The position numbers and the translations under genes were made by a program. A DNA stretch of 64,000 bases, from the NCBI GenBank assembly GCA_964460235.1, contig CAYWPM010000009.1:28189-92188 (forward strand), in the 5' to 3' direction. Shown here piece after piece: positions 25,994 through 27,580 of the stretch (the stretch's first letter is position 1; every line of letters begins with the position of its first letter). The notes below the pieces were generated by a model, which did no database searches, had not been told where the DNA came from, and was given only the letters and a program-made list of their open reading frames with translations. This DNA is from an uncultured Sediminibacterium sp. Its GTDB lineage: Bacteria; Bacteroidota; Bacteroidia; Chitinophagales; Chitinophagaceae.

Positions 25994-27226
25994 ATGGCAA
26001 AGGCTAAGAAGAAAGTAGCACCCCAAAAAAGAGCAAAGAAAGCCATTAAATTTCCTCCGGATCATTTTGTTGAAGTAAAAAACAAAGGGTATGGAAAGGG
26101 GCTGCAAGGTATAAAAATACATTACGAAGGACAGAAACCGTCAACACTAAAAGCTGACGGGTCTATTACATTCGGCAAACATATTTTGGAGCTACTCACC
26201 AAAACCTTTACAAAGTTTCAATGGATAATAACACCAAGTACCGATTCTATTGAATATAAATATGGAATTCATAGAGTCAGAACTTCTGTAAGAACATTAA
26301 GTAGAATGTACCAAGAATTATTCTCTCGGAGCAAGGATATAAAAGTTGATATTCTCTCTGATTTCTTTTCAATAGCATATCCGGGACAGTTTAAAGCAAA
26401 AACCACAAGCTCATATAGTGGTGGATCTTTAGCAAAAATTATAAAACCCGAAATAGTTTCTAAAATGTCGCCCGAAGACAAAGATGCATTAAACAGTTTT
26501 TTACCGGGGTATATTGCTCAGGAGTCTTACTCAACAGTGAATCTCCTAAAGGCAAATGCTCAAATACAAACATTAGAAGAATTAGCTGAAGGCTTTAAAT
26601 TAGAAATAGGAAAAGGAAGAAGCGAATCATGGTGGCAAGATTATATAAAAGCTAACATTTTAATAATACAACAAGGGTATATAAAAGCGATTGAAAAATT
26701 AAATGTGGCACTTGGTGGAACCAAATATCCAGATTTTTTACTAATAACACATGACTCGTATATTGATATTTTAGAAATAAAAAAACCATCTACTGTATTA
26801 CTAAAGCACGATTCTGGGAGAGATAATTATCATTGGGATGTAGAAATGTCACGGGCAATAATACAAACCGAAAATTATATTGAACAGGTTTCTTCTTCTG
26901 CTGATAAAATTAGAAGTTTTATTAAGGACAAATATAAAATCGATTTAAAAATAGTAAGACCTAGGGGAATAATATTGGCTGGAGACACAAGTACATTTGA
27001 GAATCAAAAACAAAAAGATGATTTCAGGTTGCTTACTCAAGCACATAAAAACATTTTGTTTGTGACATACGATGAGATGCTTAACAGGCTAAATAACTAC
27101 ATTTCTGTGCTAAAGGAGTTTTCTGCTCCTGAAAAGAAAACTGCAACAATTCCTCTTGTTAAAAAGGTAAATAAAAAAGCGGTTAATACAAAGCGAAGTG
27201 GCTCGCCGTCAAAGGCGCGGGAGTGA
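25994..27226 (+). CDS. sduA: Shedu anti-phage nuclease (DUF4263)
   Basis: C-terminal YPDFLL...ILEIKKPST...AIIQTENY...RPRGIILAG...VTYDEML pattern. Confidence 0.85.
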   Translation: MAKAKKKVAPQKRAKKAIKFPPDHFVEVKNKGYGKGLQGIKIHYEGQKPSTLKADGSITFGKHILELLTKTFTKFQWIITPSTDSIEYKYGIHRVRTSVRTLSRMYQELFSRSKDIKVDILSDFFSIAYPGQFKAKTTSSYSGGSLAKIIKPEIVSKMSPEDKDALNSFLPGYIAQESYSTVNLLKANAQIQTLEELAEGFKLEIGKGRSESWWQDYIKANILIIQQGYIKAIEKLNVALGGTKYPDFLLITHDSYIDILEIKKPSTVLLKHDSGRDNYHWDVEMSRAIIQTENYIEQVSSSADKIRSFIKDKYKIDLKIVRPRGIILAGDTSTFENQKQKDDFRLLTQAHKNILFVTYDEMLNRLNNYISVLKEFSAPEKKTATIPLVKKVNKKAVNTKRSGSPSKARE

Positions 27227-27580
27227 GGAACGAACGGACGCGACTGCGAGCGCCATTTGTTGGGGTGACAGTAAAGCGCGAAGAATGAGCGCGATGGACA
27301 CACAGTGAAGGGGCGCAGTGTGGCATGCGCAGCATAAGGGTTGGTTTTGTGCCAACGAAGCCCCGTAACGCAGCTAATGGCAGCGCAGGCGAGCCCAACA
27401 ACAGAAGGAAGCGGGTGAACATAAAGGGTCACGAAGGAAGAATGACTGAGTGCGCCTTTATGGGCACAGGAGCTTCCCGAGCGAAGGGTGTGAGGAACGC
27501 GAAAAGTATGACAACCTGGAATCAGGTTGGCGGACTTTTTGCCGTGACGAATACCCGCAGAGAGACCTTTTTACCTGCGA
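27199..27580 (+). ncRNA. Candidate large structured RNA or ssDNA element
   Basis: GC- and purine-rich island with at least eight nested or local helices and two copies of GTGAGGAACG; see findings. Confidence 0.5.

Follow-up and report, generated by a model that had tools for sequence, protein, structure and literature searches.

A large folded non-coding element, most likely an RNA, on the backbone of mobile islands in the Chitinophagales

The element and the genes beside it

The DNA analysed here (the window) is a stretch of 64,000 nt from an uncultured Sediminibacterium sp. (Bacteroidota; Chitinophagales; Chitinophagaceae), positions 28,189 to 92,188 of the forward strand of contig CAYWPM010000009.1 in assembly GCA_964460235.1. 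Between a Shedu gene and a split RloC-like gene it holds a G+C-rich block that the original prediction, read from the letters of the window, took for a highly structured, undescribed non-coding element; two roles were offered for it, a defence-linked RNA serving the Shedu or HEPN nuclease, or a single-strand origin or recombination hairpin acting on transferred DNA. The description is borne out by a null result against Rfam and by covariation on the + strand. The three features that lie side by side at the locus are the following.

25994-27226, + strand: Shedu gene (Pfam PF14082, SduA_C, at residues 210-363, E = 3e-27)
27124-27585, + strand: the whole element, a short-form member of its family (nhmmer profile and covariance models R1 and R2)
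27756-30146, + strand: AAA_13 (RloC-like) gene, split by a stop into two open reading frames (ORFs), 27756-28733 and 28767-30146, with Pfam PF13166 in both halves

The span first noted, 27199-27580, falls within a sharp rise in G+C, to 0.57-0.61 from about 0.32 on either side, and is 61% purine. Folded as RNA, its + strand reaches -152 kcal/mol (z = -4.58; 0/100 shuffles are as stable), while the - strand gives z = -1.20. In the predicted fold purines make up 79-80% of the unpaired positions and 50% of the paired bases. The block is thus as structured and purine-rich as predicted, with unpaired parts that are indeed mostly G or A. It is also non-coding, as had been supposed, because its ORFs are unconserved, have no family match and lose their frame to indels. 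Pfam gives zero matches for the ORFs within the block (a 97-aa frame at 27325-27618 on the + strand, 27097-27432 on the - strand, and others), and short indels among homologues number 2884 whose length is not a multiple of three against 478 whose length is. No tRNA-like or tmRNA-like module was found in the element by ARAGORN.

Homology sets the limits of the element. An nhmmer profile of full-length homologues aligns to 27124-27421 and 27421-27577 of the window; covariance model R1, for the 5' domain, scores 186 bits at 27193-27400, and R2, for the 3' domain, scores 97 bits at 27462-27588 (G000:C9:55650-55776 in genome coordinates). The element is single-copy in its own genome. The location first given is therefore upheld, with a start moved upstream from 27199 to about 27124. 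With that start, the last ~34 codons of the Shedu frame are element sequence: the frame enters the element and finds its stop codon in the loop of the 5' hairpin P2. Of the 410 residues of this Shedu protein the SduA_C domain reaches only to 363, and the C-terminal tail beyond it is probably an accident of the insertion of the cassette.

A conserved fold on the + strand

Covariation was measured on alignments made by MAFFT, which is blind to structure: A4, covering the 5' domain (n = 11), and A1, covering the 5' hairpin with the central and 3' domains (n = 12). A further alignment, A5, holds 36 distinct sequences aligned by covariance model; it is fitted to its model, so the claim rests on the MAFFT result. 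Controls were made by sliding the 3' partners by 1-3 columns. (RNAalifold was unsuccessful when all 21 of the 5' domains were aligned together by MAFFT, which mixes two architectural variants, and worked on the 11 with the architecture of the window copy.) Standard pairs fill 91.4% of the cells of the 5' domain in A4, with changes on both sides in 17/32 pairs, a result matched by 0/500 shuffles, against 22-42% of cells paired in the slid controls. For the 5' hairpin, central and 3' domains in A1 the figure is 92.3%, with 27/46 pairs changed on both sides and slid controls at 28-45%. The larger A5 gives 92.1% for the 5' domain, both-side changes in 28/32 pairs and 23-38% in the controls, and in a separate alignment of the 3' domain (A8, n = 20) 15/21 pairs have changed on both sides. 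Among the central-domain helices (A1 columns 341-365 / 559-585), 98.5% of cells are paired and 10/18 pairs have changed on both sides. The covariation that the original prediction proposed to look for is strong, and it appears on the + strand at nearly every helix. G.U outnumbers A.C by 51 cells to 10 in the paired columns, and most members keep two neighbouring U.G/G.U pairs (A5), which identifies the + strand as the one that folds. The parts of the fold in the window, all on the + strand, are listed here.

27166-27172, + strand: 5' strand (AGGUAAA) of a putative closing helix P0, pairing with 27569-27575 in the register presumed for the window
27200-27207, + strand: 5' GCGAGC-type copy GGCUCGCC, with candidate partners GCGAGC at 27246-51 or GGCGAGCC at 27388-95
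27213-27245, + strand: 5' hairpin P2 (27213-19 : 27239-45), whose loop carries GUGAGGAACGA; 4/7 pairs changed on both sides (A1)
27246-27394, + strand: 5' domain, with covariation in A4 and A5
27246-51 : 27389-94, + strand: 5'-domain helix GCGAGC/GCGAGC with tandem G.A
27252-64 : 27369-81, 27265-71 : 27295-301, 27310-14 : 27360-64 and 27318-27 : 27348-56, + strand: further 5'-domain helices, with covariation
27407-27477, + strand: central domain in its short form, GGAAGC 27407-12 : GCUUCC 27472-77 around a nested hairpin
27478-27541, + strand: 3' domain, with the second GUGAGGAACG loop at 27488-97 and the helix 27503-19 : 27524-41 (A8, also A1)
27556-27585, + strand: 3' tail with the family-conserved GAGACCUUUUUACC, holding the 3' strand of P0

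The conserved fold thus runs from a 5' hairpin through three domains (5', with several helices, central and 3') and is closed by pairing of its two ends. Several helices read by eye in the original prediction agree with it: GGAAGC 27407/GCTTCC 27472, enclosing CATAAAGG/CCTTTATG and GTCA/TGAC, is kept, CAACCTG/CAGGTTG is part of the longer helix 27503-19 : 27524-41, and the pairing of GCTCGC with a GCGAGC copy also stands. The pairings TTGTTGGG/CCCAACAA, GCGCA/TGCGC and GTTGG/CCAAC are local alternatives that the family drops, and covariation backs other helices in the 5' domain.

In the long forms of the family the 5' leader AAGGUAAAAG pairs with the 3' tail CUUUUUACCUU, and three kinds of P0 helix are found that differ by compensatory changes (CCGGUAAAAG/CUUUUUACCGG, GGUAACAG/CUUGUUACC and GGUAAUA/UAUUACC), so the molecule is closed by its own ends. 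GCGAGC is present three times. Its 5' copy reads GCUCGCC in some members and GCGAGCC in others, and its two possible partners are invariant; judged from sequence, this alternation fits a pairing of the 5' copy with an invariant GCGAGC, by Watson-Crick pairs or by tandem G.A pairs, with either of the two as the candidate partner.

The repeat of GTGAGGAACG that was noted at the outset is real and belongs to a recurring loop motif, U[GAGGWACGA]A, a 9-nt loop closed by a U-A pair. Many members carry it on 2-4 different hairpins of one molecule (e.g. L006, L016 and L159), and the window has it at 27223-27232 and 27488-27497. GAGGAAC is the 7-mer repeated most often in the family. The GAGGWACGA loop could serve as a binding or docking module. 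It shares GAGAGGAAC with the eukaryotic sarcin-ricin loop; the resemblance is regarded as coincidence, the 5' half of the sarcin-ricin motif being absent from the loop.

Members, islands and neighbours

BLAST finds partial, blockwise matches (65-81% identity) in 21/400 genomes of the same GTDB family, and most of the twelve homologues that were aligned are longer than the window copy, at 650-900 nt. Absent from the window copy are a block of ~170 nt, from the central domain, and a hairpin ~80 nt long at the tip of the 3' domain. The same central-domain deletion occurs in short forms from other genera (L159, L015, L195 and L196), and the short architecture is found in at least 2 other genera as well as in one genome of the window's genus. 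Because the short form recurs in other genomes it is a natural variant and not a decay peculiar to this copy. The window copy is accordingly a natural short form; two peripheral domains are missing from it, and a Shedu cassette has been inserted immediately before it. In some long forms (L002, L004, L005; L006/L016) a G+C-rich conserved stretch runs 150-250 nt past the 3' tail and includes a further GAGGAACGA hairpin; some members may thus carry an extra 3' domain, for a total of ~0.9 kb.

Model R1 detects the family in 17/150 genomes, sampled at one per genus, of the window's family, which is large (about 1 genus in 9 is positive), and also in one family elsewhere in the order; R2 adds three further families of the order. 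In all, at least five families of the order besides that of the window have members. Neither model matched any of ~135 sampled genomes from the phylum outside the order. A pattern scan of metagenomes, in which the family is easily found, gave 51 contigs, 51/51 of them confirmed by the nhmmer profile; the corresponding scan of viral contigs gave none, and neither did BLAST against plasmid and phage collections. (A loose IUPAC-code pattern scan of genome contigs returned mostly chance matches in high-G+C genomes, with L081 the only true member.) Neighbouring genes for proteins with type IX secretion system (T9SS) sorting tails, for SusE and for RteC place the family in Bacteroidota. Copies per genome range from 1 to 4. 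Genomes with 2-4 copies include G062, G895, G116, G079 and G066, and G062 has two on a single contig, separated by 6 kb (L202, equal to G062:C18:30000-49999, at 6607-6879 and 12775-13351).

The family is absent from the catalogue searched. At the gathering threshold, Rfam 15 finds in the whole window only the tRNA at 16622-16694, and in 36 homologous loci only one tRNA. At E <= 10 nothing better than E = 2.2 appears in 26900-27900, and nine long-form loci searched at E <= 1 yield only two unrelated weak matches, both outside the element. There is no match to the Rfam 15 models of GOLLD, ROOL, OLE, HEARO, the group II intron, raiA or Flavo-1. The Rfam comparison that had been suggested as a check thus names no known family for the window or its homologues. 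A literature search, with most subscription journals outside its scope, yielded no description of the element.

The window copy lies on an integrated island of 32.3 kb, bounded by perfect direct repeats.

16648-16696, + strand: left copy of a 49-bp perfect direct repeat, the 3' half of a tRNA gene (right copy at 48945-48993)
17768-22694, - strand: mobilisation operon, with relaxase (17768-18709), coupling protein (19251-20798) and three unknown genes
47487-48845: integrase, an island gene

The mobilisation operon was recognised from the Pfam families Relaxase and T4SS-DNA_transf and from protein clusters c3, c9, c1, c7 and c13. With a relaxase and a coupling protein, and without mating-pore genes, the island is a mobilisable, tRNA-integrated one. 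It also encodes RadC and ArdC, and its defence cargo consists of Shedu, the split AAA_13 gene, a ResIII/methylase/SNF2 set and Gabija. A 25-nt repeat (GGTACAACATAGGTACAACAAA[A/G]AG) lies just inside each island end (16746-16770 and 48825-48849) and could be an arm-type site of the integrase.

A tally of neighbouring genes, which the original prediction had also proposed, covered up to 10 kb per side of 55 loci and shows that genes of the island backbone recur. In 27/55 loci a gene for a protein of 250-300 aa (cluster c0) is found on the same strand, 0.4-4 kb before the element (e.g. L028:6435-7241 and L030:7670-8419), with small DUF6876, DUF6943, DUF5675 or DUF1508 genes in between. One island of this type contains RteC, a regulator of CTnDOT-type conjugative transposons. 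The c0 protein has no match among Pfam, NCBIfam, PHROG or PDB sequences; its AlphaFold model (predicted local distance difference test score, pLDDT, of 72) has a helical N-terminal part and a beta-sandwich C-terminal part, and a Foldseek search with it returned nothing significant. The window's own genome has one c0 homologue (G000:C7:4369-5112), on another contig, with no element nearby. In a second group of loci, to which the window belongs, the element stands beside the relaxase/coupling-protein operon, often with genes for the single-stranded DNA-binding protein SSB and ArdC on its other side. The relaxase operon is near the element in 7 loci, co-directional with it in 5 (L035, L195, L197, L198 and L200) and divergent in 2 (the window and L032).

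The downstream DNA is seldom the same at two loci; in many of them it is defence or toxin cargo (HipA, restriction-modification genes, a kinase), and large unknown ORFs occur as well. No defence gene recurs beside the element in the 55 loci, and no Shedu-like or AAA_13-like gene recurs among them as a shared neighbour cluster. With cargo so variable and backbone neighbours recurring, a tie to Shedu or RloC is unsupported; the element belongs to the island backbone and not to any particular defence gene. On the islands it has transfer and leading-region genes on one side and, on the other, the site that collects defence cargo. Cargo insertion exactly at the 3' end of the element, in the manner of islands at tRNA genes, was considered and rejected, since synteny between related islands continues 0.5-0.8 kb past the element. 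About two thirds of loci have an opposite-strand gene immediately upstream, and at most loci the genes on both sides run opposite to the element; it is therefore neither leader nor trailer to a conserved gene. When two related islands are compared, it keeps 75-78% identity against 66% for the c0 gene, and the remainder is unalignable: the element is the best-conserved DNA of the region between those two islands, under stronger constraint than the genes around it.

Function and comparison with known systems

We consider it probable that this gene-sized non-coding element works as a folded + strand, most likely as RNA, and that it represents an uncatalogued, multi-domain, purine-rich family of 0.4-0.9 kb on the backbone of integrative conjugative and mobilisable elements of the Chitinophagales. 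That the working molecule is RNA seems likely to us; that it is a single-stranded DNA signal seems a good deal less so, and we would call it unlikely. The most direct argument for RNA is that orientation to the relaxase operon varies and only one strand is transferred. RNA-like features are the size of 0.4-0.9 kb, the multi-branched fold, the invariant purine-rich loops and junctions, the conserved tandem G.U and tandem G.A pairs, the loop motif on 2-4 hairpins and the enrichment in G+C within an A+T-rich genome. Most homologues sit between opposite-strand genes, from which transcription as a stand-alone RNA may be inferred, and the genomic context suggests that it would act in trans for the mobile element. 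Such an RNA may act alone, with host factors or with various proteins of the element, c0 being the best candidate partner where it is present. It might be a scaffold or a decoy, whose recurring U[GAGGWACGA]A loops would bind protein or nucleic acid. Our preferred guess, offered tentatively, is that it helps the element to become established or to persist after transfer. More speculative still, and rather doubtful, is a new functional class of RNA for island establishment, an RNA-only or RNA-protein machine with loops that capture a host factor or immune effector. An establishment RNA of that kind would parallel, as RNA, the anti-defence proteins that leading regions encode, or would be an assembly similar to the ROOL and GOLLD cages.

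Several observations weigh against this proposal. The window copy has no clear Bacteroidota-type promoter or terminator, its upstream side being the Shedu frame. In the long forms A+T-rich TA..TTT-like boxes occur 10-25 nt before a conserved GUGYG, at an inconstant distance, and a regular-expression search for a fixed promoter box found no consistent position. No partner protein is common to all loci, and the trans role and the establishment function are drawn from context. Two domains and the ancestral upstream neighbour are missing from the window copy, which could therefore be impaired. The element also occurs near ssb and ardC, and on enterobacterial plasmids these genes have single-stranded DNA signals near them.

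This last point leads to the strongest alternative, an unlikely one in our estimate, in which the element is a folded single-stranded DNA signal, either a single-strand origin (sso) or single-strand initiation site (ssi) or a promoter like Frpo, acting on the transferred strand in the recipient. Covariation reports a folded single strand, RNA and DNA alike, and the setting on a mobilisable island, in several loci beside ssb and ardC and upstream of the relaxase operon, speaks for such a signal. In the roughly two thirds of loci with an opposite-strand upstream gene, the folded + strand would be the template of that gene, which is the geometry of Frpo. The resemblance to Frpo and ssi (F, ColIb-P9) and to sso (rolling-circle plasmids, ICEBs1) extends to being non-coding, strand-specific, folded and near leading-region genes of the ssb type. 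Those signals, however, are extended hairpins of 150-330 nt with promoter boxes in their stems and a fixed orientation to the nick site, whereas the element is multi-branched and larger, has tandem G.U and G.A pairs and occurs in both orientations to the relaxase operon; its + strand could thus not be the transferred strand in every locus, an indirect argument in which the relaxase operon stands in for the nick site. A signal of this class would rebuild in its stem a host promoter, with boxes -33 TTTG / -7 TAnnTTTG in Bacteroidota, or a primase site. Conserved -33/-7 boxes were not seen inside the stems; on inspection, the complement of the 5' leader (CTTTTACCTTTTTGCC) is loosely like a -7 box. 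In the window the 1.2-kb Shedu gene lies between the element and the nearest opposite-strand gene. The suggestion in the original prediction of a single-strand origin or hairpin thus keeps its mobilisable-island setting and is disfavoured by the two orientations and the RNA-like features. If the element is a DNA signal after all, it would be the largest and most complex described.

A partner, guide, antitoxin or decoy RNA of the Shedu nuclease or of the RloC-like/HEPN gene was the original proposal for a defence link, and it is suggested in the window by the position of the element between the two genes and by a Shedu frame that ends inside it. The neighbour tally largely refutes it, neither gene recurring and the downstream cargo nearly always differing, and the RloC-like gene is here split by a stop. 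Type III toxin-antitoxin RNAs, retrons and the non-coding RNAs of DRT systems would be expected to be constantly linked to a cognate protein gene, and no such linkage is found in the 55 loci. We hold this alternative to be very improbable.

No likelier is it that the element descends from a known mobile RNA and is now decayed or non-autonomous, a remnant of, for example, a group II intron without ORF, an omega or bridge RNA or a retron RNA. Long forms do start near a conserved GUGYG, the 5' consensus of group II introns, and their sizes overlap those of ORF-less introns. A group II intron would also be expected to have domain V/VI hairpins close to its 3' end and, as a rule, an encoded reverse transcriptase or a location within a gene. 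The GUGYG-like pentamer near the 5' end is the only intron trait found: RF00029 and the D1-D4 models give no match, and the Rfam intron, HEARO and related models stay silent even at E <= 1. No reverse-transcriptase, IscB, TnpB or IS110 domain was found by Pfam in the recurrent clusters and selected loci searched. The 1-4 copies per genome hold fixed backbone positions and are not scattered, and purifying selection with compensatory changes speaks against decay. As for a cis-acting part of a neighbouring mRNA (a Shedu 3' untranslated region or the leader of the next gene) or a small protein gene, which the position directly after Shedu on the same strand and the 97-aa frame might suggest, the opposite-strand neighbours of most homologues and the unconserved, frame-broken ORFs without family match make it the least credible alternative of all.

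Returning to the RNA that we favour, it would add an RNA layer to the biology of conjugative elements if it aids island establishment or immune evasion. For annotation, gaps such as the one it occupies should not count as empty, nor should neighbouring ORFs be extended into them (as the Shedu frame illustrates). Intricately folded bacterial non-coding RNAs of several hundred nucleotides are rare, and past cases have proved to be ribozymes, nuclease guides of mobile elements or self-assembling cages.

Among structured RNAs of mobile elements, the HEARO or omega RNA of IscB and the bridge RNAs of IS110 resemble the element in being a few hundred nucleotides long; they always adjoin a nuclease or recombinase gene, whereas none is among the neighbours examined here, and their Rfam models are unmatched. 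The sponge RNAs CsrB and RsmZ also repeat a purine loop motif on several hairpins; they are simple strings of hairpins, and the element differs from them in its long-range helices and junctions. To our knowledge, Bacteroidota are generally without CsrA. GOLLD, ROOL and OLE form homo-oligomeric assemblies. In the descriptive class of large ornate orphan RNAs the element has the structural traits of a member (at least 400 nt, a multi-domain fold backed by covariation, conserved unpaired nucleotides, no coding function), and GOLLD, ROOL and OLE are the large "ornate" bacterial non-coding RNAs to which it is best compared (PMC12286853). It differs from these three in sequence and structure, as judged by the Rfam models, and in belonging to the phylum Bacteroidota; its carriers, unlike those of GOLLD and ROOL, are conjugative and mobilisable islands rather than prophages, in keeping with the null scan of viral contigs. 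It shares with all three a length of several hundred nucleotides, several domains, conserved unpaired purines, covariation and the lack of a coding frame, and with GOLLD and ROOL, themselves RNAs of no established function, a home on mobile DNA.

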